The translations under genes and the position numbers were made by a program. DNA of 64,000 nt. Source: an uncultured Chloroflexia bacterium (GTDB taxonomy: Bacteria > Chloroflexota > Dormibacteria > CF-121). The notes beneath the pieces were generated by a model. It ran no database searches, was not told the origin of the DNA, and saw only the letters and a program-made list of their open reading frames with translations. The stretch is from contig CAWCIV010000002.1 of the NCBI GenBank assembly GCA_963795805.1, positions 138,917 through 202,916 of the forward strand, in the 5' to 3' direction. Shown in pieces: positions 15,945 to 31,535 of the stretch (position 1 is its first letter; every line of letters starts with the position of its first letter).

Positions 15945-18342
15945 CTAATTCACGGTCCCGGGTTGGCTGTCGCCGAGCGGCCGCCGGAATCCCAGCCCGG
16001 GACCAGCGGTCCGGGGTGTCGCGGGCAGGAGCGCCTTTTCGAAGACTTCACCGACATGCTTGACCATCACGAGGTCCATCGACTGCTTGACCTCGTCGGG
16101 CACTTCGTGCAGATCTTTTCGATTCTTCTCCGGCAAGATAAAGGTCGTTATCCCGGCGCGATGCGCGGCGAGAAGTTTCTCCTTGAGTCCCCCGATGGGT
16201 AGCACTCTCCCGCGGAGGGTGATCTCGCCCGTCATGGCCACATCGCGGCGGACCGGCCGGTCCGTCAGCACGGATACGATCGCCGTCGCCATGGTGATGC
16301 CCGCCGAGGGCCCGTCTTTCGGGATGGCGCCGGCCGGCACGTGAATATGGATGAAATGATCGTCGAAGAAGCCGGGCTTGATGCCAAGTTCGAGGGCATG
16401 CGCCCTGGCGTAGCTGACCGCGGCGCGGGCCGACTCTTCCATGACCTTGCCGATCTGACCCGTTAGCGAGAACTCACCGCGGCCCTGCATCGCGATCGCC
16501 TCGACGGTCATCACGTCGCCGCCGTATTCGCTGACGGCGACGCCGGTGGCGGCGCCGATCTGATCCTCCAGCTCGGCGATGCCGAACTCGAACCGCGACG
16601 GTCCGAGAAAGCCGACGAGGTCCTCGGGCGTGACCGTCACTTTTTCTACCTGACCTTCGGCGATGCGGCGCGGGATCTTGCGACAAATATTCGCGATCTC
16701 CCGATCAAGGTTTCGCACGCCCGCTTCGTGGGTGTATTCGCGGATCAGGAGCTTGAGCGCCGGGGCGCTGATCTCCAGGTTGTCCTCCGTCAGGCCGTGC
16801 TCGCGCAGCTGGCGAGGGATCAGGAAGCGCGTCGCGATATGCAGTTTTCTCGTCCTCGGTGTAACCGGGAAGCCGGATGATCTCCATGCGATCGCGCAGG
16901 GGCGGAATGATCGTGTCAACGACGTTTGCCGTCGTGATGAAGAGCACCTGCGAGAGGTCGTACGGGACTTCCAGATAGTGATCCGAGAAGTCTTTGTTCT
17001 GTTCGGGATCGAGGACCTCGAGCAGCGCCGAGGACGGATCCCCACGCCAGTCCGCGCCGACTTTATCGATTTCGTCGAGCATGAAGACCGGGTTTTTTGA
17101 GCCTGCGACTTTCATCTGTTGCAGCACGCGCCCGGGCATCGCGCCGATGTAGGTGCGCCGGTGCCCGCGGATCTCCGCCTCGTCATGGATTCCGCCCAGC
17201 GACAGGCGGACGAATTTACGGCCGAGCGCGCGGGCGATCGACTTCCCAAGGCTCGTCTTTCCAACCCCGGGCGGACCGACAAAGCACAGGATCGGTGATC
17301 GCAGCGTCTGCGAGCGCTGACGCACCGCCATGTATTCGAGGACGCGTTCCTTGATCTTCTCGACGCCATAGTGATCCTCATCGAGGACCGTCGCCGCGAC
17401 CGCGATGTCCCAGGTCTCGGCCGGCGAAGGACCCCAGGGCAGCGCCACCAACCAATCGACGTAGGTGCGGATGATGCCCACCTCCGGCGATGCGGCCGGA
17501 ATGCTCTGCATCCGATCGATCTCCTTGAGGGCCCGCTCTTTGACCTCGTCGGGCATCCCGGCCGACTCGACCTTCTCTCTGAGCTGCTGGAGGTCCGCGC
17601 CCTCCTCCTCCTCGCCCAGCTCTTTCCGGATCGCCTTCAGCTGCTCGCGGAGGATCTGGTCACGCTGGAGCTTGCCGATCGTGCTCTGGACCTCGTTCTG
17701 GATCTTGGCCTTCAGCTCGAGGATCTCGACCTGCTTGCTCAGAAACAGCGACAGGAGTCGCAAGCGTTCGAGCACATTGGGCATCTCCAGCATGTGCTGT
17801 TTCTGCTCCAGCGTCTGATCCGGGGCGGCCGACACGAGGTCAGCCAGGTAAACGGGATCATCGGTTTTGGCGACGGTGGTCGCAACCTCCGGCGCGACCG
17901 TGGCACCCGACTCCACGTACTTTTGATAGAGGCTTTTGACCGAGCGCATATGCGCTTCGAGCTCGAGGCCCGCGCCGACTTCGTCCAGCACCGCTTCGAC
18001 CTCGACTTCGATGTAGGGGGTGAACTGGATGAACCGGACGATACGAGCGCGCTGTGATCCGGCAACCAGCATCTGCACCCCGGCCGGCGTCTGGCGCATC
18101 CCATTGATGTCGGCAATCGTTCCCATTCCGAACAGATCGGCTTCACCCGTCTCGTCCGTCTGCGGATCCTTCTGAGCGACCAGCAGGACTTGCTTGTCTT
18201 TCTCCATGGCGGAGGTGATGGCGGCGATCGAGGTGCGGCGACCGACGGAGAGCGGCACGATCAGCCTGGGGAACACGACATCATCGCGAAGGGGAACCAA
18301 CGGGATCCGGCGAAGCGCGCCTGGCTGCTCCGCGTCAGTCAC
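15945..18342 (-). pseudogene. lon: Lon protease (paralog 1), frame-interrupted as printed
   Basis: The N-domain + AAA+ part (GPPGVGKTS) is in ORF 16705-18411. The rest ([13 protein letters not shown]..., PKDGPSAGITMATAIVS, GGLKEKLLAAH) is in ORF 15945-17045. The two join as ...GYTEDEK|LHIATRFL if one base of the T4 run 16845-16848 is skipped. The likely start is GTG 18342, 4 nt after the ftsH stop. Confidence 0.85.
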
Positions 18343-18346
18343 GGCG

Positions 18347-20308
18347 TCAGACCTGGGTGCCGGCGTCCGTGACGGCTCGGCGCCAGGCATGCGGCGCCGC
18401 GGCCGCCCCACCCTCCAGCGCGCGGGGCCCGATCAGCCGGGCAATCTGGTCCTCATCAAGGACCTCTTCTTTGAGAAGGGCCTCAGCCAGCATGTCGAGT
18501 TTGGATCGGTTCGTGGTCAGGATCGACTCGGCAGCCTGATAGCCCTCGTTGAGCAGGCGGGTCACCTCTTCGTCGATGATCGCGGCGGTCCGCTGGCTGA
18601 CGTGGGGGCTGCCGGCTAGCTCCCGGCCGAGGAACACGGCACTCTGCGAGTCATCGAAGGAAAACAGTCCCATCTTTTTGCTCATCCCCCAGCTGACGAC
18701 CATCCGGCGCGCCAGCTCGGTGGCGGTCTCGAGGTCGTTCTGGGCGCCGGTCGTGATACTTCCCAGGGCAATCTGCTCCGCCGCGCGGCCACCGAGCGCC
18801 ATCGCGATGCGGCTCTCGAGATACTCTTCGGACAGGTTGTGCCGGTCATCCGTCGGGATCGACTGCGTCACGCCAAGCGCCATCCCGCGGGGGACGATCG
18901 TGATCTTGTGCACCGGATCAGACTGGGGTTGGTACCAGGCGACCAGCGCATGGCCGGACTCGTGGTAGGCGATGACTCGACGCTCGGCTTCACTCAAATA
19001 GATCTTTCGTTCCGAGCCGAGCACGACCCGGTCGAATGAGTCCTCGAAGTCATGCATGGTCACGGTCGTCCGGTTGGTGCGCGAGGCATGCAGGGCCGCC
19101 TCGTTCACCAGGTTCGCCAGGTCCGCGCCAACCAGACCGGGTGTCGAGCGGGCAATGATATCGAGATCGACGTCAGGGTCCACCGGGACGCCCCGGGTGT
19201 GGACTTTCAGAATGGCGGCGCGCCCGCGGCGGTCGGGACGATCGACCACGACGCGACGGTCGAAGCGACCTGGCCGAAGCAGGGCTGGATCGAGAACGTC
19301 GGCTCGGTTGGAGGCGGCCAGCACAACGACGGCCTCGCGCTGGTCGAAGCCATCCATCTCGACGAGCAGCTGGTTCAGGGTCTGCTCGCGTTCATCATTG
19401 CCGCCACCGAGACCGGCGCCGCGCTGGCGGCCGACTGCGTCGAGCTCGTCGACGAAGATCACGGCCGGGCTGTGCTTCTTGGCGTCCTCGAACAGGCTGC
19501 GGACACGGGAGGCGCCGACGCCAACGAACATCTCGACAAACTCCGACGCCGAGATGCTGAAGAACGGGACGCCCGCTTCACCGGCCACCGCGCGCGCCAG
19601 CAGCGTCTTGCCGGTACCGGGGGGGCCGATCAACAGGACGCCCTTGGGCATGTGGCCACCGAGCTTTTGAAATTTCTGAGGGTCGCGGAGGAATTCGACG
19701 ATCTCCTGGAGCTCGAATTGCGCCTGCTCGACACCGGCGACGTCGTGGAATGTCGTCTTGGGGGTCGCCGGGTCCTGAAGGCGCGCGCGGCTCTTACCAA
19801 AGGAAAAGATCCCCTGGGTGGCCTGTCCACTGCGCCGGATGAACCAGACCCAGAGACCGACCAGCACGAGGATTGGAAGGAAGCTGATCAGCAGGTTGCC
19901 CAGGCCGCCGGTATCGGTCTTGACCGTGGTCGTGACGTGGTTTTGACTCAGCGCCTGCCAGAAGGCCGGGTCGACCTGGCTGACGCCGTCCGGGACCGTC
20001 GCGTGGAACTGCGTCCCGGCGATGCTGTTATAGCTGAAACTGGAATTGAAGTCTCCGCTGGCATCCTGCCCCTGGATGGTGATGTCCTTGACGTTGCCCT
20101 TTAAGACCTGGGCCTGCAGCTCGGAGTAGGGAATGTCGACCCGCGGGGGGCCACCCAGGCGGCTGATCAAGGGCGAAGCCAAAAAGAAGACATAAATCGC
20201 CAGCCCTGCGACCAGCAGCGACAGCCGGAGACGGTTGTTCGGTCCCTTGGACGGGGTCGCATTGGGGTTCGGCTTGGGCGGGTTGGTCTGATCCGGACGG
20301 AGCGCCAT
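18347..20308 (-). CDS. ftsH: ATP-dependent zinc metalloprotease FtsH
   Basis: 653 aa with two N-terminal TM segments. GPPGTGKT, second region of homology, and HESGHAL zinc site. Confidence 0.95.
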
Positions 20309-20452: not shown

Positions 20453-20525
20453 GGGGCGATAGCTCAGCTGGCAGAGCGCTGCACTCGCATTGCAGAGGTC
20501 GAGAGTTCGAGTCTCTTTCGCTCCA
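20453..20525 (+). tRNA. tRNA-Ala (anticodon CGC), CCA not encoded
   Basis: GGGGCGA-TA-GCTC-AGCTGGCA-GAGC-G-CTGCA-CTCGCAT-TGCAG-AGGTC-GAGAG-TTCGAGT-CTCTT-TCGCTCC-A. G3:U70 is present. Confidence 0.9.
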
Positions 20526-20556: not shown

Positions 20557-21921
20557 TCAGGCGGCGGCTGGCAAGGCTCGAGGATCGACCTCGCTGGCAT
20601 CGATCGCTTCCTTCGCCTCCGGCTGCGCGATTCGCGCAAAGGCCGCCCAGATGACCATCGGCGCGGCGCCCGACACGACGATCACGATCCGGGCGAGCAG
20701 CAGCTGGTCAATGGGGGCGGCGAGCAGGAGAAAGAACCCGATGCTGAGGACGCGGCCGACGGCGAGGCACAGCTCCTGGTGGACGATGTACTCATAGCGA
20801 AGTGACCGCGCCTGCGGGTCCCGATCGATCACCTGCAGCGCGAGCGGCGCAAGCCCGTTGCCGTGCAGCGGGCCACCCAGGGCACGCAACAGCCCGAACG
20901 CCACCAGCGCCCACGCGGACAGATAGAGCGGCAGGACGAGCGTCGAGGCGACCAGCAAGGAGGCGCCGATCAAGGCGCACGCGATTCGGTGGCGCGGACG
21001 CATGTAGGCGGCCAGGACGAGGCTGGTTCCGACGCCCAGGATCCCCATGGTGCCGTTGAAGTTGCCCAGCTGCTGCTCGTTGTCGAGCACCAGGTAGGCG
21101 AGCACCGTCAGGACGACACCGCTGAGCATGCCGGAAAAGCCGTCGGCGAGCCGCGCGCCCATCACGTTCAGCCACGGCCGGTTCCGAAGGTGCAGCGTCG
21201 CCATGGTGTGGATCGAGAAGGCGGGCCGGTATCCGCACTTCAGCCGCCCGGCAAGCAGCATCGCGCCGATCATCAGGGCGGCCGCCAGTCCGAAGACCAC
21301 CTGGTAGCCGCGCTCCATGCCTCCCCAGTTCGCACCCAGCACGATGGCTGCGCCGGCCAACGGTGGTAGGCCGCCGCTGAGGAAGCAGTTGACCGCGCCC
21401 ATGGCGCCGAAATAGCGGTCGCGGTTGCCTTCGGTTGTCGAGTCATAGGTCGTGAGGTGAAAGCCTGCCCAGTACCAGCCCTCGCCCAGCCCGCGGAGCA
21501 GGCCGAGCGGGACGATCCAGTTGACGCTGTGGTTGCCGAGCCCGAGCACGGCGACGTACACGACGACAAGACAGCCGAGCCCGATGCGGATCGCCGTGCC
21601 GGCGCCGGCCCGCCTGAAGAGCAGGCCGTTGGCCAGGAAGGCGATCGGGATGGTGACGGCGCTGATCCAGGTGAAGAGGGCTACGCGCGCCAGGTCATGG
21701 CTGGCCTTCCACAGAAAGATGGATAAGAAGGTCGCCGCGAGCAGGTTGGCAGCCGTATAGGCGGCCGAGATCAACACCATGGTGGTCGCGGTTCGATCCA
21801 AGCCTCCCGACGTCGCCCTTACTGAAAACACGTCCCCTCTTTTCGCCGTGACCCGGCCCGTATCGGACAACGTCAGCGTGAGAACCCGCTTTCCCCGGTC
21901 ATCGGCCTGTGACCCGGTCAC
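20557..21921 (-). CDS. MFS-type transporter (polytopic membrane protein)
   Basis: 454-aa ORF with about 12 hydrophobic segments. Alternative start at ATG 21780 (MVLISAAY...). Divergent from the terpene operon. Confidence 0.5.
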   Translation of the reverse strand: MTGSQADDRGKRVLTLTLSDTGRVTAKRGDVFSVRATSGGLDRTATTMVLISAAYTAANLLAATFLSIFLWKASHDLARVALFTWISAVTIPIAFLANGLLFRRAGAGTAIRIGLGCLVVVYVAVLGLGNHSVNWIVPLGLLRGLGEGWYWAGFHLTTYDSTTEGNRDRYFGAMGAVNCFLSGGLPPLAGAAIVLGANWGGMERGYQVVFGLAAALMIGAMLLAGRLKCGYRPAFSIHTMATLHLRNRPWLNVMGARLADGFSGMLSGVVLTVLAYLVLDNEQQLGNFNGTMGILGVGTSLVLAAYMRPRHRIACALIGASLLVASTLVLPLYLSAWALVAFGLLRALGGPLHGNGLAPLALQVIDRDPQARSLRYEYIVHQELCLAVGRVLSIGFFLLLAAPIDQLLLARIVIVVSGAAPMVIWAAFARIAQPEAKEAIDASEVDPRALPAAA

Positions 21922-22020
21922 GCGGATTCGTCACCGGGAGGGTCCGAACCGCCGTGAAAACCGGCCCCAACGCGAGGCCGAAACGTTTGCCGCAACAGGC
22001 CGGCGGTAGCCTCCGCCTGA

Positions 22021-23593
22021 GCGCTGGGAAACGGCGCTCTCGAAAGGGAGCCAGAAACGGAACTCGCCGATCGTCACGTCCAGGCGCCGGAGCCGCGTCA
22101 ACGCGGGTCCCACCTCCCATTCCCGGCCGCCAGCCGGGAAATCCTTGCATCCCTCGACCGGGGCGCCATCTCGGCCGCCGCCTACGACACGGCGTTCGTG
22201 GCGCGGCTCCGTCACCCGGAACAGGCCGAGACCCTCGCCTACCCGAAGAGCCTCGCCTCCCTGCTGCGCGGCCAGAACCCCGATGGCAGCTTTGGGACCC
22301 GCCTCCCGATGCCCAAGGAGAAGTTGGTCTCCACCCTCAGCGCCCTGGTCGCGCTGGCCGACCTGCCAGCCTCGCTGCAGGACGGCGCCGCGCATCGCGC
22401 CCGGCTGGCCGCCCTCCGCTTCGTCTACGAAGACACCGCCAACTGGCAGACCGGCCCCGACACCGCCGGCTTCGAGTTGCTTCTGCCGGCCCTCCTCGAC
22501 GAGGCCACGTCCCGCGAGTTGCCCCTACCGTTTGAACGGTTTCGCGGCGTGATCGCCCAGCGGGATGCCAAGATCGGACACATCCCGCCCCGGCTGATCT
22601 ACACGGTCGACACGCCCCTCCTCCACAGCCTCGAATACCTCGGCAGCCGGATCGATGCGCAGGCGGCCCGCGGACGCCTCTGCCGGAACGGGTCCTTCGC
22701 GAACTCGCCCTCAGCGACCGCGTACTTCCTCCTGCACAGCAGCGACGCCAGGGCGACGGCGTACCTCGACGCGCTGATCAGCGCCCGCGGCGACGGCAGC
22801 GTGCCAACCGTCACCCCATTCGAGGTCTTCGAACGCGCCTGGGTCCTCTACAACCTCGCTCGGGCCGGCTTCATGCCGACCGACGCGGGGTCCCACGTGG
22901 CCTACCTCGCCCAGGCCCTCACCGACGACGGCGTGGGCGTCGCCAGCGAGGGGCTGCGGCCCGACTCGGACGACACCGCGCTCACGCTCAGCGTTCTGCA
23001 CCGGTACGGGTATCCGATCTCGATGGGGCCGCTGCGGCCCTTCGAAGGCATCAATTTCTTCTTCACGTTCCCCCTCGAACGTGACGCGTCTGTTACCGCC
23101 AATGCTCACGTGCTCGAAGTGCTCCGCGCCTGCGCCCCCTTCCCTCGCCAGCAGGTGATCGAGCAGAAGGTCGTGAAGTTCCTGCGCGACGCGCGGGTCG
23201 ACCAGAACCACTGGCTCGACAAATGGCACGTCTCGCCCCTCTACGCCACCGCCCATGCCACGTTCGCGCTGGCCGAAGCCGCGCCGGACGTCTGTTTGCC
23301 CGCCTACACCTGGTTCAAGAACAGCCAGCGCGACGACGGGTCGTGGGGCTGGTTCGACCAGGGGACGCCCGAGGAGACCGCCTACGCCGTCCAGGCGCTG
23401 CTCACCGCCCCGGAGTCGGTTCGGGCCGACTTCGACGCCAACTTGAGCCGGGCGGAGCAATACCTGAATGAAACGGAGGGTGAACTCGTCATCCCTATGT
23501 GGGTCGGCAAGACCCTGTACGCGCCGGATGAGGTCATTCGAGTCGGCGGTACTGTCGGCGCGGATTCTGCTGGCTCGGAGGTCGGTATGTTAG
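22021..23593 (+). CDS. Class II (protonation-dependent) terpene cyclase, labdane-type diterpene cyclase-like; start unresolved, one frame break near the 3' end
   Basis: ISAAAYDTAFVARL (upstream of the first canonical start GTG 22198). QW-like repeats QNPDGSFG, RGDGSVPT, QRDDGSWGW. DxDD is DSDD at 22963-22974. PMWVGKTLYAPDEVI then continues best in the +1 frame as ESAVLSARILLARRSVC* (stop 23591-23593). Confidence 0.7.
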
Positions 23594-24506
23594 ATCGGCG
23601 GATCGCCAAGCTCAAAGACAACCTGTTGCGGCAGGCCGACGAGGTCCGGGTCGTCCGGCACCTGGTCGACGACAATCCGCGGGGCGACGACATGCTGGGC
23701 GAGGTCTGCCGGGCCGCGGTCCTCCTGCACCCCGGGTCCACCTTCGAGCAGGCACTGACGCTGGCCCGGACGATGGCCTACATCGTCTACATCGATGACT
23801 TCCTCGAAGAGGAGCACCCGGAGTACGACCTGGGCGACTACCGCCGTGTCTGCCAGAACTTCCTGATCTGGCACAACCGCGACCTGAGCCAGATGCCGCT
23901 CGTCAACGCGACGGTGTCGCGCAAGGTCGAGGAGCAGTTCCTGGAAGATGAGGTCCCCGAAGAGTGGACGGCGATGCGCCGGCTGGTCTGGGAGAAATCG
24001 ATCTGGACGATGCTGCAGGAGAACCACTGGCTGAAACACAAGGAGCGCGTCACGCTCGACGCCTACCTCGCCAATGGCATGTACAGCAGCTCCTTCCCGA
24101 TCGTGCAGGTCAGCATCCTCGCCTTCTCCTACCAGGACGTCTCGCAGGAGCTGAAGAACCGGATCTTCGGCCACATCTGCCAGGCCTCCCGGGTGGTTCG
24201 GCTGGCCAACGACCTTCGTACGCACGAGCGCGAGGCGGCCCAGGGCCGATTCAACTCGGTCGACCTGATGCTGGCCGGCCAGCCCGACGGCACGCTCGAA
24301 TGCCGCGCGCGCCGCCGCCCGCCGCCTGATGGACGAGGAGTTCGAGATGCTGCAGAAGGCGGTCGCCAAGCGAGCGGCGCACGGGCGTCACCCAGCAGTT
24401 CCTCACCCACCTGATCGACAGCACCCAGGTGCTGCTGGACTTCTACGAAGTGCCGCGCAATCCGGCCCGGTCGGTCGGACCGGAGCCTGAAGGCGAGCTG
24501 ACCTGA
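23587..24506 (+). CDS. Class I (ionisation-dependent) terpene synthase; two frame breaks near the 3' end as printed
   Basis: GGAGG (23577-23581) plus 5 nt plus ATG 23587 (MLDRRIAKLKD). DDFLE at 23794-23808. NSE/DTE is NDLRTHERE at 24208-24234. The C-terminus is reconstructed as ...GQPDGTLE / AARAAARRLMDEEFEMLQKAVAKRA / RTGVTQQFLTHLIDSTQVLLDFYEVPRNPARSVGPEPEGELT*, with one base skipped near 24301 and one near 24377. In the ORF track it is fused to the class II gene (22198-24414). Confidence 0.7.
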
Positions 24507-24591
24507 CCATGGGCACCTCCATCAACCTCAAGCTCGTCGAAGCGCGCTGCGCCCGGCAAGCCGAACGAGCGCCGATTCCTCGGCGGTCGAG

Positions 24592-26934
24592 ATGGAGAAG
24601 CGCATCATCACGATCCGCTGGCTGGCCATCCTGCTCGCCACCGGCGCGCTGCCGTTCCTCAACCTCAAGGGCCAGACCATTCCCCTGATGGCGTTGATCG
24701 GCGTGGGCGCCGTGTACAACCTGCTCTTCCAGGTGTTCATCGTGCCGCGCAAGCCCGCCTGGCTGGAGCGCGGCTATATCTCGACCGTCGGCGACGTCCT
24801 GCTCGTGACCGGCGGCGTCGCGGTGACCACCGTGACCAACGGGCTCGAATCGCCGTTCTTCCTGGCCTATTTCGTGGTGACGGTGACCTCGGCCGTGCGC
24901 TTCGGTGGGGTTGCCGCGATCACCGCGGTCCTCACCATCATCCTGAGCTACAGCACGGTGGTCTTATGGTTCGACAGCGTCAAGGGCACCCCGCTGATCG
25001 CGGCGGACTTGACCGCCCTGGCGATGCGCACCGGGTTCGTGGCCATCACCGGCATCTTCGTCGGCTTCGTCGGTGACCGCGTTCGGCGGGCCGAGCAGGC
25101 CCTGCAGACGGAGCTCGACCGGGCGCATGCGGCGCTCTCCGAGGTCACGGTCGAACTCAACCGCGACCTGGAGTTCGAGCAAACCTGCCAGCTCACCGCC
25201 GAGAAGGGCCGGGGGCTGCTCAGCGCCGACGTGGTCCTGCTGCAGGTCCAGATGCCGTCTCTGATCGGCCAGGACGAGTCCGTCCCGCCCGCCTCCATGC
25301 TCTATATCGACTGGAGTCCCGAGCTGAAGGCCGCGCACGAAGGCACGGATATGAGCGCGGTGCGCCTCAACCTCCAGACCGCCACCACTGAGCAGGTCAT
25401 CCCCGTGCCCGACCCCAACGCGCTCGTTCCCTCGGATCACAAGCCGTTGCCCGCCGGGATGTGGGTTCGCGTGCCGGTTTTCCACGGCGCGCGCGCGATC
25501 GCCGATCTGATCTTCGGCTTCCAGGGCCGCGAGCAACCGCTACGCGAAACCGAACAGGACATCATGCTCACCTTCGCCGAACGCGCCGGCATCGCGATGC
25601 GCAACGCGCATACGCTCGACCAGGCCCAGAAGCTGTCGGTCACGGACTCGGTCACCGGGCTGCCGAACCACCGCTACTTTCACACCCGCTTCGACGAGGA
25701 GCTGGAGCGAACGCGCGACGCCGGTGGCTCGATCACCGTGATGATGATCGACCTCGACCGCTTCAAGGTCTACAACGACAGCTTCGGCCACGCCGCGGGC
25801 GACGTCGCGCTGAAGGCGGCCGCCCGCACGATCTCCTCGACGATGCGCCGAGAGGACACGGTCACCCGGTACGGCGGCGAGGAGTTCGTTGCGATCCTGC
25901 CCGGCGTCGACATCCAGACCGCCCCCATCCGAGCGCAGGAGATCTGCGACACCCTGGCCAAGGTGTTCATGTACAACCCCAAAACCATCTTTGCCCCGCT
26001 GACCGCCTCGGTCGGTTGGGCGACTTACCCGGTCGATGCCAAGAACCGCGACGAGCTGCTGAACCGCGCCGACCTGGCCATGTACATGGCCAAGAAGCGC
26101 GGGCGCAACTGCATCTGCGGCGCCTGCGAACTGGAGAGCGTCGCCGCGCTCGACTCCGTGCTCAGCGAGGTCGTCGCCCAGCTGGCCAGCGCCGACACGG
26201 TCGGCCCCGGCATGGTCGCCAACCTCGAGAAGCGCCTTGGCCAAATCGCCAACTCCAGCCATCTCGAGGAGCTGGCCGAGGGCATGCTCTCCCCCAACAG
26301 CGAGTCGACGCTGGAGGCGCTCAACGCGCTGGCGGCCTCGATCGACGCCAAGGACCCGTACACCAGCGGCCACTCCCAGTCGGTCGCCAAGCTCGCCGAA
26401 GACCTGGGCGACATGCTGCAACTCTCCGCGGCCCACAAGAACCAGCTTCGCCTCGCCGCCATCCTCCACGACGTGGGCAAGATCGGTGTGGTCGACAAGG
26501 TGCTGCTCAAGGAAGGCAAGCTGGATGAGGACGAGAAGCTGATCATGCGCATGCACCCCATCCTGGGCGCACGCATCCTGCAGCCGATCAAGGCCTTCCG
26601 CCAGATTCTCAACGTCGTCCTGCATCACCACGAGTGGTACGACGGGAGCGGCTATCCCGACGGCCTCGCGGGCCAGAACATCCCCCTGCACGCGCGCATC
26701 GTCTCCGTCTGCGATGCGTATCACGCCATGACCTCGACCCGACCCTATCGCCAGCGGCGCACGCCGGAGTTCGCGATGGCCCAACTCGAGGCCGGGAAAG
26801 GCACCCAGTTCGACCCCATCATCGTGGACTACTTCGTCCAGATGATGCGTCGGCGCGAGGCTGACCATCCGGGCATCCTCGAAGAGGAAGGCCACCAGCA
26901 GGACCACGGCCCGGACGCCGCGGCAGCGGGCTGA
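24592..26934 (+). CDS. Membrane sensor protein with GAF-like, GGDEF (diguanylate cyclase) and HD-GYP (c-di-GMP phosphodiesterase) domains
   Basis: 780 aa with about 6 N-terminal TM segments. I-site RRED followed by RYGGEEFVAILPG. HD-GYP region has HSQSVAKLAEDLG, HDVGKIGV and HHHEWYDGSGYPDGL. Confidence 0.85.
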   Translation: MEKRIITIRWLAILLATGALPFLNLKGQTIPLMALIGVGAVYNLLFQVFIVPRKPAWLERGYISTVGDVLLVTGGVAVTTVTNGLESPFFLAYFVVTVTSAVRFGGVAAITAVLTIILSYSTVVLWFDSVKGTPLIAADLTALAMRTGFVAITGIFVGFVGDRVRRAEQALQTELDRAHAALSEVTVELNRDLEFEQTCQLTAEKGRGLLSADVVLLQVQMPSLIGQDESVPPASMLYIDWSPELKAAHEGTDMSAVRLNLQTATTEQVIPVPDPNALVPSDHKPLPAGMWVRVPVFHGARAIADLIFGFQGREQPLRETEQDIMLTFAERAGIAMRNAHTLDQAQKLSVTDSVTGLPNHRYFHTRFDEELERTRDAGGSITVMMIDLDRFKVYNDSFGHAAGDVALKAAARTISSTMRREDTVTRYGGEEFVAILPGVDIQTAPIRAQEICDTLAKVFMYNPKTIFAPLTASVGWATYPVDAKNRDELLNRADLAMYMAKKRGRNCICGACELESVAALDSVLSEVVAQLASADTVGPGMVANLEKRLGQIANSSHLEELAEGMLSPNSESTLEALNALAASIDAKDPYTSGHSQSVAKLAEDLGDMLQLSAAHKNQLRLAAILHDVGKIGVVDKVLLKEGKLDEDEKLIMRMHPILGARILQPIKAFRQILNVVLHHHEWYDGSGYPDGLAGQNIPLHARIVSVCDAYHAMTSTRPYRQRRTPEFAMAQLEAGKGTQFDPIIVDYFVQMMRRREADHPGILEEEGHQQDHGPDAAAAG

Positions 26935-26948
26935 GGGCGCCCGCGCCC

Positions 26949-27998
26949 ATGGCCCTCGACGCCAACGGTCACCCCCTTTCGCGGATCTCGGAGCGGAAGC
27001 TTCAGCACCTGCGCCTCTCGCTCGAGGCATCGGTCCAGTCGACCCGCGGCGCCGGCTTCGACCGACTGGCCTTCACCCATCAAGCCCTCCCCGACCTCGA
27101 CCTCGACGCCATCGACCTGCGCGCTAGCTTTCTCGGTCACCCGCTGCATCTCCCGTTCCTGATCTCCAGCATGACCGGCGGCGCCCACGCGGCAGGCGAC
27201 ATCAACCGGCGACTCGCGCTGGTCGCACAGGCGATGGGGATCGCGTTCGGCGTTGGCTCTCAGCGCGCGGGCATCACGCACAAGGACCTCCGCTCGACCT
27301 ACCAGGTGCGCAGCGTGGCACCGGATGTGCTCCTCTTCGCCAACCTTGGCGCGGTGCAGCTGAACTACGGCATGCGCAAGGAGCAGTGCCTCGAGGCGAT
27401 CGAGATGATCGGCGCCGATGCGCTCATCCTCCACCTGAATCCGCTCCAGGAGGCCCTCCAACCAGAGGGCGATCATAACTTCCGCGGCCTGCTGGAGAAG
27501 ATTGCCGAGCTCTGCACGGAGCTCCCGGTCCCGGTGATCGTCAAAGAAGTTGGTTGCGGAATTTCGGGTGAGACCGCGAGGCTGCTGGCCGACGCCGGCG
27601 TGGCCGCCATCGACGTCGCCGGGATGGGCGGGACGAGCTTCGCCCGTGTCGAGGCGATGCGCCGAGAGCGGCCCGAGGAGGTCGAGCTGGCGCTCGCCTT
27701 TGCCGAGTGGGGCATCCCAACCTGCGATGCCATCCGCGCCGTCCGCCAGGCGGCGCCGGCCACGCCCGTGATTGCGAGCGGTGGCCTGCGACACGGTCTC
27801 GATGCGGCCAAAGCGGTCGCGCTTGGCGCCGAGCTCACCGGCTTCGCCCACGTGGTTCTTGCCGCCGCCACCGAGAGCGAGGCGGCCGTTCGGCTGGTGC
27901 TGGACGGCTTTGCCTGGCAACTTCGGGTTGCGATGTTCTGCGCCGGGGCGCAGGATCTCGCCGCCCTCCGCGCTGTGGCCCTGCACGAGGTCCGATGA
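26949..27998 (+). CDS. fni: Type 2 isopentenyl-diphosphate delta-isomerase (FMN-dependent)
   Basis: 349 aa. ISERKLQHL, FLISSMTGG, VKEVGCGIS, AIDVAGMGGTSFA and IASGGLR. Confidence 0.85.
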   Translation: MALDANGHPLSRISERKLQHLRLSLEASVQSTRGAGFDRLAFTHQALPDLDLDAIDLRASFLGHPLHLPFLISSMTGGAHAAGDINRRLALVAQAMGIAFGVGSQRAGITHKDLRSTYQVRSVAPDVLLFANLGAVQLNYGMRKEQCLEAIEMIGADALILHLNPLQEALQPEGDHNFRGLLEKIAELCTELPVPVIVKEVGCGISGETARLLADAGVAAIDVAGMGGTSFARVEAMRRERPEEVELALAFAEWGIPTCDAIRAVRQAAPATPVIASGGLRHGLDAAKAVALGAELTGFAHVVLAAATESEAAVRLVLDGFAWQLRVAMFCAGAQDLAALRAVALHEVR

Positions 27999-29038
27999 CC
28001 AAGACCAAAGTCTTCGCCAACCGAACCGATCGCCTCCAGGCGATGAACGATGCACTCGACCGCGAGCTGGGCCGCCTCTCCCAACAGGCGGGATCGAGTC
28101 AGAGTGCGCTGCTGACGGAGATGGTCCAGTATCACCTGGGGCTGCGCCGGACCGGCCACCGGCCGGGAAAGCGGCTGCGGGCCAACATCGCGCTGCTGAC
28201 CTGCGAGGCGTTTGGGCGGCGCTACGCGGAGGCGCTCTGGGCCGGGGTCGCGGTCGAGCTGGTGCACAACTTCTCCCTCGTGCTCGACGATGTCCAGGAC
28301 GGCGACGAGTTGCGTCGCGGGCGCCCCGCGGTCTGGAAGGTCTGGGGAACCGGCCAGGCGATCAATGCCGGGGCGGCGCTGGAGGCCCTCGTGACGCGGT
28401 CGGTGGTCGACCTGCTGCCGGCGCGGCACGCCGATCGAACTCGGCCTGCGCTGTCGCTGCTCTCCGAGGCGATGCTCGCCCTTTGCCGCGGCCAGGTGCT
28501 TGATCTCCAGTTCGAGCAGCGCATCGACGTCTCCGTCGACGAGTACCTGGAGATGATCTCTCTCAAGACCGGCGCGCTGTTCGAGTGCGCGGCGCGCCTT
28601 GGCGGGGTTGCCGCCGGCGCGGGCGAGGCGAGCCTCGATCGGGCGGGACATTTCGGTCACCACCTCGGCCTGGCCTTTCAGGTGATCGACGACATCCTCG
28701 GTGTCTTCGGCTCGACCCAACAGACCGGTAAGCGCGTCGGGAGCGACCTGAAGAATGGGAAGAAGACGCTGCCCACCCTGCATGCCCTGCGCAACGGCCC
28801 GGCCGGTAACCGTCGGGTGCTCCGCTCCCTGCTGACGCGTGCCAGGTTCAGCGCCGAGGAGCTGGAGACCGCCCGCGCCATCATCGCCCAGTCCGGGGCG
28901 CAGCAGGTTTGCCGCCGGCAGGCGTCCGAACACCTGGCCGAGGCCCGCCTCCACCTGTTCTCCATGACCGAGCGGCCCAACTGGGCAGTCCGGGCGCTCG
29001 CCGACATGGTGACGACGCTCGAATCGGCCCTCGGCTAA
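27995..29038 (+). CDS. Short-chain polyprenyl diphosphate synthase (GGPP synthase-like)
   Basis: Starts MTKTKVFANRTDRL, with ATGA overlap to the fni stop. First Asp-rich motif LVLDDVQDGDELRRGRP, with Phe at position -5. Second motif FQVIDDILG. Confidence 0.8.
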   Translation: MTKTKVFANRTDRLQAMNDALDRELGRLSQQAGSSQSALLTEMVQYHLGLRRTGHRPGKRLRANIALLTCEAFGRRYAEALWAGVAVELVHNFSLVLDDVQDGDELRRGRPAVWKVWGTGQAINAGAALEALVTRSVVDLLPARHADRTRPALSLLSEAMLALCRGQVLDLQFEQRIDVSVDEYLEMISLKTGALFECAARLGGVAAGAGEASLDRAGHFGHHLGLAFQVIDDILGVFGSTQQTGKRVGSDLKNGKKTLPTLHALRNGPAGNRRVLRSLLTRARFSAEELETARAIIAQSGAQQVCRRQASEHLAEARLHLFSMTERPNWAVRALADMVTTLESALG

Positions 29039-29088
29039 GCCAGCATGGCCGGCCGTGAGAGAATAGATTTGGAAGGGGCCAGCGTCCA

Positions 29089-29864
29089 ATGCGCATGCCC
29101 AACCGGCGATCAATGAGCTATATCATCTGGGTTCTCCTTGCCCTCCTTGCGCTTGGCCAGCCGGCCGTGAAGACGTCGGCGGCGGCAACGACGGCCAGCG
29201 AGGTCCTCGGCACGCAGGCAACTCCGGCCGATCAGGCCTTTCGCGGGAAATCCTACGTGGCGCTCGGCGACAGCATCAGCGCCGGGCGCTACGCCACCAC
29301 CGCGGATAAGGTCTTTCCCGCGCTGGTCGCGGCGCAGCTCGGGATGAACCTCAACCTGATGGCGAGGAGCGGGGCGAAGGCCGCCTGGGCGCATCCCTCA
29401 ACTGGCGGCGATCGACCAGCGGCACCCTGCGCTCGTCACCATCGAGCTCGGGACCAACGACGTCGGTTTCCAGACACCGGTGGCCGATTTCACCAGCCAG
29501 TACGAGACGATCGTCGACCGCTCTGGCGGTGCCTGGTACGCGGCTGCTCTGCATCGGCAGCTGGCTGCCGTCACCGCTCGTATCGACGACATCATTTCCG
29601 GCATCTGTGAGCGACACGGCGGCAACTTCGTCAGCCTTTCGGGATTCTACGGCGACAGCAGCCTGCATGCCGCAGACGGCGCTCCCGTCTATCTCGGTCG
29701 TGCTGACTGGTTTCACCCAGGCGATGCGGGCCACGCGGCGATTGCCCAGGCGGTACTGGCGAGCCTCGGATCGGAGGTGCCGATGCCCGAGCTGGAGAGT
29801 CCCACAGCCCCAGCCCCCGGCCGCGCCCGGGGGACCCGACGTGATCCGCATCACGCCCCGGTAG
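29089..29864 (+). pseudogene. SGNH/GDSL-family hydrolase (secreted), frame-interrupted as printed
   Basis: Signal-like IIWVLLALLALGQPAV. Block I is YVALGDSISAG. After AKAAWA the protein continues in the +1 frame as IPQLAAIDQRHPALVTIELGTNDV...DWFHPGDAGHAAIAQAV, skipping one base near 29392. More frame changes are possible at 29525-29580. The 3' end is uncertain. Confidence 0.65.
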
Positions 29865-31535
29865 AGACCGGACGCTCCCCGGGTCGGGGCCGCCGCTGCG
29901 CCGGATCGAGCACCTCGTCGATCTTGACCGCCAGGTGCAGCGTCAGGCGAACGTCGGCATCTCGCAGGTCCCTGCTCAGGATCGTCTCGATCCGGCCAAG
30001 CCGGTAGAGCACGGTGTTCCGGTGCAGGTGGAGGTGGTCGGCGGCATCGGTCGGACTGCCGTTGGCCGCCAGGTAGGCCCGCAGCGTGGCGACCAGCACC
30101 CCACCCCGGTCTGCCTGCTGAAGCGGTGCCAGGATGTCGTCGCGAAAGCTGCGCAGCTCAGGCTGGGCCTGCATCCCGAACAGGAAGCGGTAGAGGCCGA
30201 GATCACTGAAGGCGGTGGCCGCCTGGGGGCCGCTCAGGCGGCGTCCCATCTGGAGCGCCTGTTCCGCCTCACGGGCCGCGGCTGAGACGCCCGCCATCCC
30301 CGAACGCACCGCCCCATACCCGACCGCAACCGGCCCGCCGGCGGTCGCCTCGCGCGGTGCGGTGGAACTGGTCGACCAGCGGGCGGGGATCCGGGAGGCC
30401 GCTTGCCGGCCAGGCTGATCAGCGCCAGGATCAGGTCGCCCCGGTCACGCACCAGCGCGTTCAACCGCATGGTGCCAAGCTGCCGTTCCCAGGCGAGGCG
30501 GATGGCGTGAGCCTGACCGCCCTGGCCCGCTTCGGCCGCCAGCACCAGGTAAGGCGCGTCGACATCGAACCCCTTGCGCTTCGCCCGCTCGCGAGCGGCC
30601 TCCTGGGAGCCGGGCCGGGCGGCCGTCAGCACATCGAGCAATTCTTCTTCGACCTCGTCGCGGGCGTCGCGGGCCGCCCGGACGCGGACCAACTCGATCG
30701 CGCAGGCGTGGGCGGCACGGCCGACCGCCAGCCGGTGGAGCTCGCCGAGCTCCCCGTCCGATCCGAGCAGCGAGACGAAGCCCGCGATGCTCCCCTGCAC
30801 CAGGATCGGCGCCACCAGGCGCGACTGCCCGTCGGGCAGGGGACGGGACGAGACGGGGGGATCGAAGGCCGAAAGGGGCACGTCCCGCAACCACGTGTCC
30901 AGCGCCGGACGGTCGCGCGCGATCACCGCCGCCACCGCCGCCGGAAGCTCGCGTGCCGGACCATTGGGAACGTAGTCGAGGGCGGACTCGCGCTCGAGCA
31001 GCACGCCGACGCCGGTGAGCTCGCTGAGCCGGTGCAGCAGCGGGCGAAGACCCCGCCCTGCCAGCGCCAGCTCGCTCAGCTGCCGATGGAGGTCCTGGGC
31101 GCGCTCGTGTAGCTCGGCCCGGCGGTCGATGATGTAGCGCAGCACCCGCTGCTCCACCTCATCCAGCGGCGGGACGGCCGGCAGGGCGAGGAGGGGAAGC
31201 CCGGTGTCCTCGGCAACCCGGCGGGCGTCGTCCGGGACCGCGCCCCGCACGGCGACCCCCGCCACCCCCTGGCCCCCCACCGACGTCAAGAGGCGAGGCA
31301 GGCTCAGCTGCGGGTCGAACGCCCTGAGCGTCGAAGGATCGATCAGGAGCAGCTCGCCCCCGCGGAGCGGCTCGAACGCCGGCGGCCGGGTGCGGAGCGT
31401 CGTACACCATCCGACCTCGCGCCGCAAACTGGAGCCGCCCGCGATCAGCGTGGTGGCGGCTGGTAGGGCGCCGTGCCACACGTCGTCGACGGTTACATGA
31501 GGCTGGGTGGGGGCACCGGCGGTGAGGGCCTGCAT
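29851..31535 (-). pseudogene. PucR/CdaR-family transcriptional regulator, two frame breaks as printed
   Basis: The N-terminal and middle parts are in ORF 30234-31535. The C-terminal HTH (HLHLHRNTVLYRLGRIETIL) is in ORF 29851-30309. The bridge reads ...LISLAGK / GLPDPRPLVDQFHRTA / EATAGGPVAVGYGAVRSGMAGVS..., with one base skipped near 30401 and one near 30352. Confidence 0.7.

Follow-up and report, generated by a model that had tools for sequence, protein, structure and literature searches.

A membrane sensor with predicted cyclic di-GMP output encoded among diterpene biosynthesis genes in Dormibacteria and related Chloroflexota

What is an enzyme of cyclic di-GMP (c-di-GMP) metabolism doing in the middle of a terpenoid operon? 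The question is raised by a 64,000-nucleotide stretch of the genome of an uncultured Chloroflexia bacterium (Chloroflexota; Dormibacteria; CF-121; GenBank assembly GCA_963795805.1, contig CAWCIV010000002.1, positions 138,917 to 202,916), hereafter the window. An open reading frame (ORF) of 780 aa is present on its forward strand at 24592-26934, exactly as printed in a preliminary description of this DNA, and it encodes a membrane protein with a GAF-like region, a GGDEF domain and an HD-GYP domain, hereafter the sensor. As was also described, the gene lies between the terpene synthases (TPS) and the genes for precursor supply, all on the same strand; the synthases are a pair, one of class II and one of class I. 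The preliminary description suggested that c-di-GMP turnover is functionally linked to the diterpene genes, and this suggestion is supported by the recurrence of the linkage between sensor, TPS and c-di-GMP enzyme far outside the family to which the window belongs. By a narrow balance of the evidence we take the sensor to be a one-component receptor enzyme and the functional partner of the upstream diterpene synthase pair, in which a terpenoid perceived by the membrane module would act through the GAF domain on the balance of the GGDEF and HD-GYP activities and hence on c-di-GMP. Terpenoids are abundant in bacterial genomes and their physiological roles are mostly unknown; to our knowledge, a receptor by which a bacterium perceives a terpenoid of its own making has yet to be defined, and the arrangement described here offers a concrete and testable ligand-receptor hypothesis.

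Recurrence of the sensor module beside diterpene synthase pairs

The first 345 residues of the sensor, made up of six membrane helices and the GAF domain and hereafter called the module, were used as the query across 401 Chloroflexota genomes. The module is rare, being found in 33 of these genomes in 1-3 copies each, and every match from outside the window's family at E <= 1e-11 lies 0.6-1.3 kb downstream of the class II TPS gene (TPS-II) of its genome, on the same strand, where the contig permits. Such TPS-linked copies occur in nine genomes of four other families, viz., f5 (G098, G065, G041), f24 (G126, G396), f30 (G182, G335) and f51 (G216, G350); in G158 and G249, contig ends interrupt the loci. 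The window's sensor could be aligned with the kinase of G098 over residues 1-340 with 26% identity and an E-value of 2e-15.

The synthase pair and the module are the constant parts of these loci, and Pfam annotation reveals considerable variety in the rest. In f5 and f51 the class I gene (TPS-I) and TPS-II are followed by a lone receiver (REC), a module-histidine kinase of ~610 aa and a PAS-GGDEF-EAL protein, the last being replaced by a PAS kinase in G065. The order in f24 is TPS-II, TPS-I, module-kinase and REC-GAF-HD-GYP. Within f30, G182 encodes TPS-II, YjbQ and a single protein that combines the module with PAS, GGDEF and EAL domains, and G335 has TPS-I and TPS-II together with a module protein that is cut by the contig end. 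The TPS pair of G041 is followed by a 237-aa ORF (L110:6214-6927) in which the first ~118 residues of the module are joined to the final ~48 of an EAL domain, apparently what a deletion has left of a module-PAS-GGDEF-EAL gene. We define a Chloroflexota TPS-sensor cassette as a module directly downstream of a TPS pair with a c-di-GMP output, and the window's genes show this arrangement. Of the 16 cassette loci that were scanned, 14 have the DxDD(T/S)A motif and 15 the NSE/DTE pattern, and a class I Asp-rich motif occurs in every one.

An independent sample of module homologues was drawn from a collection of 5.8 billion proteins, which returned at least 120, nearly all of them kinases of ~610 aa. 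Seven were looked up; one stands at a contig start and is uninformative, and the other six metagenome contigs all carry TPS-I, TPS-II, a receiver and a module-kinase. Four of the six continue with GGDEF-HD-GYP or PAS-GGDEF-EAL plus YjbQ, and in two the kinase is followed at once by the contig end or by a gene on the opposite strand. A c-di-GMP-metabolising domain is thus fused or adjacent in 12 of the 15 cassettes from outside the family, plus the remnant in G041; in the remaining three, a PAS kinase or a gene on the other strand comes next, or the contig ends. When 1.84 billion representatives were searched with a profile of the module alignment, giant multi-GAF proteins dominated the result because the profile includes the GAF domain, and the counts are uninformative on the membrane module.

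The window belongs to a family that contains Candidatus Dormibacter. A full-length orthologue of the sensor, with 74-100% identity, is present in the genomes of this family where the assembly allows, and all 16 family loci that were read, from five genera, keep TPS-II, TPS-I, the sensor, the type 2 isopentenyl diphosphate (IPP) isomerase Idi2, a prenyl synthase, a GDSL hydrolase and a PucR-type regulator, with intervals of -7 to +14 nt between the genes from TPS-II to the prenyl synthase. Recurrence of the gene order, which the preliminary description had named as a test, therefore holds throughout these loci as well as beyond the family. Other families of the class have neither TPS-II nor an orthologue of the sensor. 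A loss of the cluster in the genome G006 was considered and rejected, as a TPS-II fragment is present there at a contig end.

The histories of synthase and sensor also appear to run in parallel. In the TPS-II tree, the window's family groups with f24 (support 96/94), the type with the order TPS-I, TPS-II, receiver and kinase forms a second clade (100/100), and neither clade includes the TPS-II genes of families that lack the module. The family joins f24 in the module tree as well (86/69). The two phylogenies thus agree on the grouping of the family with f24, which alone shares with it the order TPS-II, TPS-I, sensor and the HD-GYP output. The simplest history would be the acquisition of synthases and sensor as a block, with the output rewired from a kinase and a REC-HD-GYP protein to a fused GGDEF-HD-GYP protein. 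Comparison of the window's HD-GYP domain with those of the REC-GAF-HD-GYP and GGDEF-HD-GYP proteins of the cassettes, as its possible source, gave 35-45% identity, no higher than with unrelated paralogues.

Several observations weigh against a dedicated tie between the sensor and the synthases. FtsH, Lon and the rest of 25 kb are likewise collinear in the family, so synteny within the family is by itself weak and uninformative evidence. A distant paralogue of 727 aa with the same architecture (membrane part, GGDEF, HD-GYP) and 28% identity is present in genomes of another family of the class that lack TPS-II, and two short module-kinase copies (L131, L132) have no TPS genes beside them, so the link of the module to terpene synthesis is not an exclusive one. 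The TPS-linked copies are not cleanly monophyletic in the module tree, and adjacency would suit either direction of signal flow. The collinearity of the region, together with ~24 GGDEF/HD-GYP matches in the genome, would also suit a sensor without any functional link, being one of many c-di-GMP enzymes that was placed in the operon by chance and inherited with it. We consider such an accident highly improbable, since four other families and six metagenome contigs have the module next to a TPS pair, with differing orders and outputs, the chance of one such module-TPS neighbourhood is ~1e-3 per ~4-Mb genome, and the TPS-II and module trees are congruent.

A few further features of these loci are noted here. 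The 727-aa paralogue is located at L134:5990-8173 (G262) and also in L142 (G222), and its membrane part gives a weak, sub-threshold match to DUF4118. A YjbQ/UPF0047 gene recurs at the cassette end and once mid-cassette (L135:10872-11462, L136:10909-11490, L138:11863-12405, L141:10847-11398, L124:4990-5523) and is absent from the window's operon. In the family f9, which represents a third TPS-II clade, the cyclase is likewise directly followed by a polytopic PAS histidine kinase (L115:7231-9285, L116:7741-9432, L117:9160-11232), with a lone receiver after the kinase in L115 and L117; alignment of this kinase with the module using hhalign revealed no detectable homology, bar a shared LFTV(P/T)I-like helix. 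G158 (L107, L109, L128) has two class II TPS genes, one of each module-linked clade, and one detectable module-kinase, contig breaks hiding their arrangement.

Domain make-up and conservation of the sensor

The anatomy given in the preliminary description is borne out by Pfam searches, an AlphaFold model and a check of the motifs (coordinates in Table 1; residue numbers are those of the printed ORF). The GGDEF domain is matched by Pfam over residues 350-506 (E 3e-43) and is intact, with the GGEEF loop of the active site (A-site) at residues 428-432 and, five residues ahead, the RRED sequence of the inhibitory site (I-site, RxxD) at 419-422. The metal-binding Asp and the guanine-specifying Asn/Asp are present in IDLDRFKVYNDSFGHAAGD (residues 387-405), the substrate and metal residues being DLD and YND...GD; we take the Asn and Asp to be the equivalents of N335 and D344 of PleD.

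The HD-GYP domain is matched by Pfam HD_5/HD-GYP over residues 581-742 (E 2e-38), and the claim that it is intact likewise stands, with HDVGK at residues 626-630, HHHE at 678-681 and GSGYP at 685-689. Alignment to PmGH (PDB identifier 4mcw) and V-cGAP3 (PDB identifier 5z7c) reveals that the metal ligands H...HD...H...HH...D and the GYP signature are kept, and the motifs retained are GH, HDVGK, MHP, HHHE, CDAY and GSGYP. At the position of the third-metal Glu (E185 of PmGH), the sole replacement relative to PmGH, the sensor has a Tyr (KDPYTSGH), as does V-cGAP3, and its HD-GYP domain is therefore likely of the binuclear subtype. From its intact catalytic motifs, the sensor is predicted to be able both to make and to destroy c-di-GMP.

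The GAF-like region is also real. The Pfam GAF family aligns with it end to end over residues 195-336, below the threshold (E 0.005; 17.8 bits against a cut-off of 22.4 bits), and the alpha/beta fold is supported by Foldseek, in which the 50 best fold matches in the PDB are all GAF domains (E 4e-6 to 4e-4), with TM-scores of 0.6-0.7 against single GAF structures. GAF is the sole Pfam match within residues 1-345 even at E <= 10, no family reaching its threshold, and the DUF4118/KdpD-type membrane domain (PF13493) gave no match in this part of the sensor. The AlphaFold model, built on a 21-sequence alignment and with a predicted local distance difference test score (pLDDT) of 80.4, has six predicted helices (residues 2-22, 26-53, 62-86, 90-104, 107-131 and 137-191) joined by loops of at most eight residues, and the last of them extends as a long signalling helix into the GAF domain. 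The model and hydropathy together indicate a membrane module without an extracytoplasmic domain. Across 21 sequences from five families, R9, N43, G61, D68, G84, S87, R103 and G105 are conserved, and the polar residues among them, viz., R9, N43, D68, S87 and R103, are invariant or near-invariant within the helices of the module.

A purely intramembrane sensor is what would be expected if the diterpenoid were a structural modifier of the membrane and the module a DesK-like sensor of thickness or fluidity coupled to c-di-GMP, a role in homeostasis with which the relationship of the cyclases to makers of membrane-active polycyclic terpenoids and the co-location of the operon with the cell's general short-chain prenyl supply would also agree. 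However, the conserved polar residues N43, D68 and R103 in the helices and the co-divergence of the sensor with TPS-II suggest specific recognition, and the whole system is missing from most genomes of the class, which argues that it is not a core membrane function. We judge this role to be decidedly unlikely.

Conservation along the protein was compared among 44 full-length orthologues from five genera. All 44 have the A-site and I-site motifs, with the R..D of the latter kept throughout, and the HD-GYP signature, conservative variants included, is kept in 42, the other two having failed the pattern tried. Mean identity is 71% in the membrane part, 77% in the signalling helix and GAF domain, 96% in the GGDEF domain, 95% in the 65-aa linker between GGDEF and HD-GYP, and 97% in the HD-GYP domain. 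The catalytic half (25639-26817, residues 346-752) is more conserved than the neighbouring FtsH, an unusually strong constraint for a signalling enzyme.

The operon, its spacing and its probable frame errors

The sensor gene proper begins upstream of the printed ORF. All its orthologues in public data are ~805 aa long and start with M-x-x-x-I-N-L-K-L-S-K-R, 25-27 codons ahead of the window's MEKRI, and the corresponding extension from the ATG at 24509 is broken in the window by two single-base insertions, at 24535 and 24566, which a DNA alignment with three congeners finds to be unique to the window. The insertions mask 27 N-terminal codons, and the intact sensor of the clean relatives G004 and G005 has 807 aa. 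The 86-nt gap upstream of the sensor given in the preliminary description is therefore an artefact, the real distance from TPS-I being 7 nt in the window; the 14-nt gap downstream, to Idi2 at 26949, was exact. The same alignment places a further extra base at 24459/60 in the tail of TPS-I, which runs through several frames (24290-24506) and has its true stop at 24499-24501. Owing to another extra base (~23541), TPS-II and TPS-I read as one ORF of 738 aa in this assembly, and the true stop of TPS-II at 23591-23593 is visible in an alternative frame upon comparison with G004. Both ends of TPS-II are frame-disturbed, the first canonical start of the printed frame being at 22198. Lon is split into two overlapping ORFs (15945-18411, reverse strand) by the same kind of error. 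Given the many single-base insertions absent from close relatives, and a genome of 3.2 Mb that is in 4 contigs but of only 89.7% completeness, the assembly gives the impression of having been built from long reads without correction.

The packing of the operon could be read from the near-identical genomes G004 and G005. There, TPS-I overlaps the end of TPS-II by 7 nt, the sensor begins 8 nt (G004) or 7 nt (G005) after TPS-I, Idi2 follows the sensor after 12-14 nt, and the prenyl synthase overlaps Idi2 by ATGA. No terminator-like site and no gap of more than 14 nt was found between the operon genes on the forward strand, and a scan of this strand for promoter and terminator patterns from 22000 to 29100 returned nothing, a weak negative at 67% G+C. 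Genes packed this tightly are presumably co-transcribed.

Table 1. Features of the window around the sensor gene, with positions in the 64,000-nucleotide stretch
Feature	Position	Strand	Basis and remarks
MFS (major facilitator superfamily) transporter, candidate exporter	20557..21921	-	Pfam MFS_1; divergent from operon
Class II diterpene cyclase TPS-II	22021..23593	+	Pfam SQHop_cyclase_C; DSDD
Class I terpene synthase TPS-I	23587..24501	+	Pfam Terpene_syn_C_2, Terpene_synth_C; DDFLEE and NDLRTHERE; 7-nt overlap with TPS-II stop
Sensor / c-di-GMP enzyme gene	24509..26934	+	true start ATG 24509; printed ORF from 24592
Six-helix membrane module, aa 1-165	24592..25086	+	AlphaFold model and hydropathy
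Signalling helix and GAF domain, aa 166-345	25087..25626	+	sub-threshold Pfam GAF; Foldseek
GGDEF diguanylate cyclase domain	25639..26109	+	I-site RRED 25846-25857; GGEEF 25873-25887
HD-GYP phosphodiesterase domain	26332..26817	+	HD from 26467; HHHE from 26623; GYP 26644-26658
Type 2 FMN (flavin mononucleotide)-dependent IPP isomerase Idi2	26949..27998	+	Pfam FMN_dh-type match
Short-chain (FPP/GGPP-type) prenyl diphosphate synthase	27995..29038	+	Pfam polyprenyl_synt; start overlaps Idi2 stop (ATGA)
GDSL/SGNH hydrolase	29089..30007	+	Pfam on intact G004 orthologue; frame-broken in window; syntenic in family
PucR-type regulator (PucR N-terminal, GGDEF-like PF17853, HTH_30)	30234..31535	-	Pfam on G004 orthologue; convergent

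The closest solved relative of TPS-II is 6vpt, annotated 'Cyclase' (E 4e-53), which we take to be Rv3377c of Mycobacterium tuberculosis, and the next is the ent-copalyl diphosphate (ent-CPP) synthase 5bp8. Idi2 is present in all genomes of the family and in 8 of 30 other genomes of the class. The prenyl synthase of the operon has a Phe five residues before its first DDxxD motif (short-chain type), and the second and sole other prenyl synthase of the genome has an Ala at that position (long-chain type). With few exceptions, genomes of the class encode exactly two prenyl diphosphate synthases, and the operon copy is the sole short-chain type, so Idi2 and this synthase are probably the general and only supply of farnesyl diphosphate (FPP) and geranylgeranyl diphosphate (GGPP) in the cell; the idea that they are pathway-dedicated duplicates was rejected for the same reason. 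The gene of the MFS transporter occupies the same position in 14 of the 16 family loci, i.e., in all of those with the upstream flank on the contig. Between this gene and ftsH, at the upstream edge of the terpene locus, lies a tRNA gene (20453-20525, forward strand) where an acquired block could once have integrated.

Direction of signalling and comparison with known systems

If the sensor is the receptor of the synthase pair, TPS-II would cyclise GGPP provided by Idi2 and the short-chain prenyl synthase, which are encoded downstream, and TPS-I would complete a lipophilic diterpenoid that partitions into the membrane. The six-helix module would detect this terpenoid, or a change in the membrane caused by it, and the signal, passing through the signalling helix and the GAF domain, would shift the balance of the fused diguanylate cyclase against the phosphodiesterase, such that the cellular level of c-di-GMP would report the level of the terpenoid. 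In other Chloroflexota the same module would act via a histidine kinase, a lone receiver and a separate c-di-GMP enzyme, and the protein of the Dormibacter family would be a condensed version in a single polypeptide. Thus, judging from gene content and sequence, a dedicated receptor probably lets these bacteria perceive, or react to, the terpenoid that they make themselves.

Control could also run in the reverse direction, with the sensor detecting another membrane or environmental cue and its c-di-GMP controlling terpenoid production, either through a c-di-GMP-binding regulator such as the PucR-type neighbour or directly on the enzymes. Signalling genes situated in a biosynthetic cluster are commonly regulators of that cluster, the sensor gene lies among those of the pathway, and the PucR-type regulator with its GGDEF-like domain is conserved 3 kb downstream. 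However, that gene lies outside the cassette in other families, and the receivers of the cassettes are stand-alone or part of REC-GAF-HD-GYP proteins, none having a DNA-binding domain in any variant. Neither a c-di-GMP riboswitch nor any other Rfam family was found within or upstream of the operon, and a module without an external domain better suits a lipophilic, self-made ligand. Reverse control is on the whole unlikely in our view. The preliminary description had left the choice between second-messenger control of the pathway and a terpenoid-sensing membrane/GAF input; the latter is favoured over transcriptional control because the associated response regulators lack DNA-binding domains, and a receptor for a membrane-dissolved, self-made ligand fits better than a transcription regulator because, in addition, there is no riboswitch and no external domain and the helices carry conserved polar residues. 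The convergent PucR-type gene is itself conserved in the family (also at L013:15527-17209) and is a candidate downstream regulator.

A receptor for a self-made terpenoid would tie terpenoid metabolism to the main messenger of lifestyle switching in bacteria and define a new family of membrane sensor domains, with relevance to widespread and mostly uncultured soil lineages (Dormibacterota/Chloroflexota). We tentatively raise the further possibility, doubtful as it is at present, that the cassette is a terpenoid autoinducer system, in which a released diterpenoid serves as a cell-to-cell signal, the six-helix and GAF module is a dedicated receptor family read out as c-di-GMP, and the Dormibacter protein is its single-polypeptide form. 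If true, this would be the first bacterial synthase-receptor pair for a terpenoid signal.

Bacterial operons with class II and class I diterpene enzymes include Rv3377c/Rv3378c of M. tuberculosis, which lie with a GGPP synthase gene, and the kolavelool cluster of Herpetosiphon; as in the window, a class I enzyme comes after a DxDD cyclase, near genes for prenyl diphosphate supply. We know of no dedicated membrane sensor or c-di-GMP enzyme described for either cluster, and a full-text search of the literature found no paper linking diterpene synthases with a sensor or c-di-GMP cassette. On the signalling side, the A-site, I-site, guanine-binding residues and HD-GYP ligands of the window's sensor are shared with the solved structures of PmGH, V-cGAP3 and PleD (PDB identifier 1w25), but its N-terminal six-helix module matches no Pfam family.

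The closest parallel to the whole is the Rpf/DSF (diffusible signal factor) cluster of Xanthomonas, which consists of the synthase RpfF, the polytopic sensor kinase RpfC and the REC-HD-GYP protein RpfG. The sensor module showed no sequence relationship with RpfC, and the operon has neither an RpfF-type crotonase nor an RpfC-type hybrid kinase gene. The synthase differs, being a crotonase in Rpf and a class II/class I diterpene pair in the cassettes, and the window's protein unites sensor, cyclase and phosphodiesterase in one polypeptide without a kinase and receiver. Nevertheless, both systems place the synthase gene for a lipophilic molecule beside a polytopic sensor with an HD-GYP c-di-GMP output, and the f24 cassette (TPS-II, TPS-I, module-kinase, REC-GAF-HD-GYP) matches the Rpf layout almost part for part. 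By analogy, the system of the window would thus resemble Rpf/DSF in the way it works while not being a member of it.

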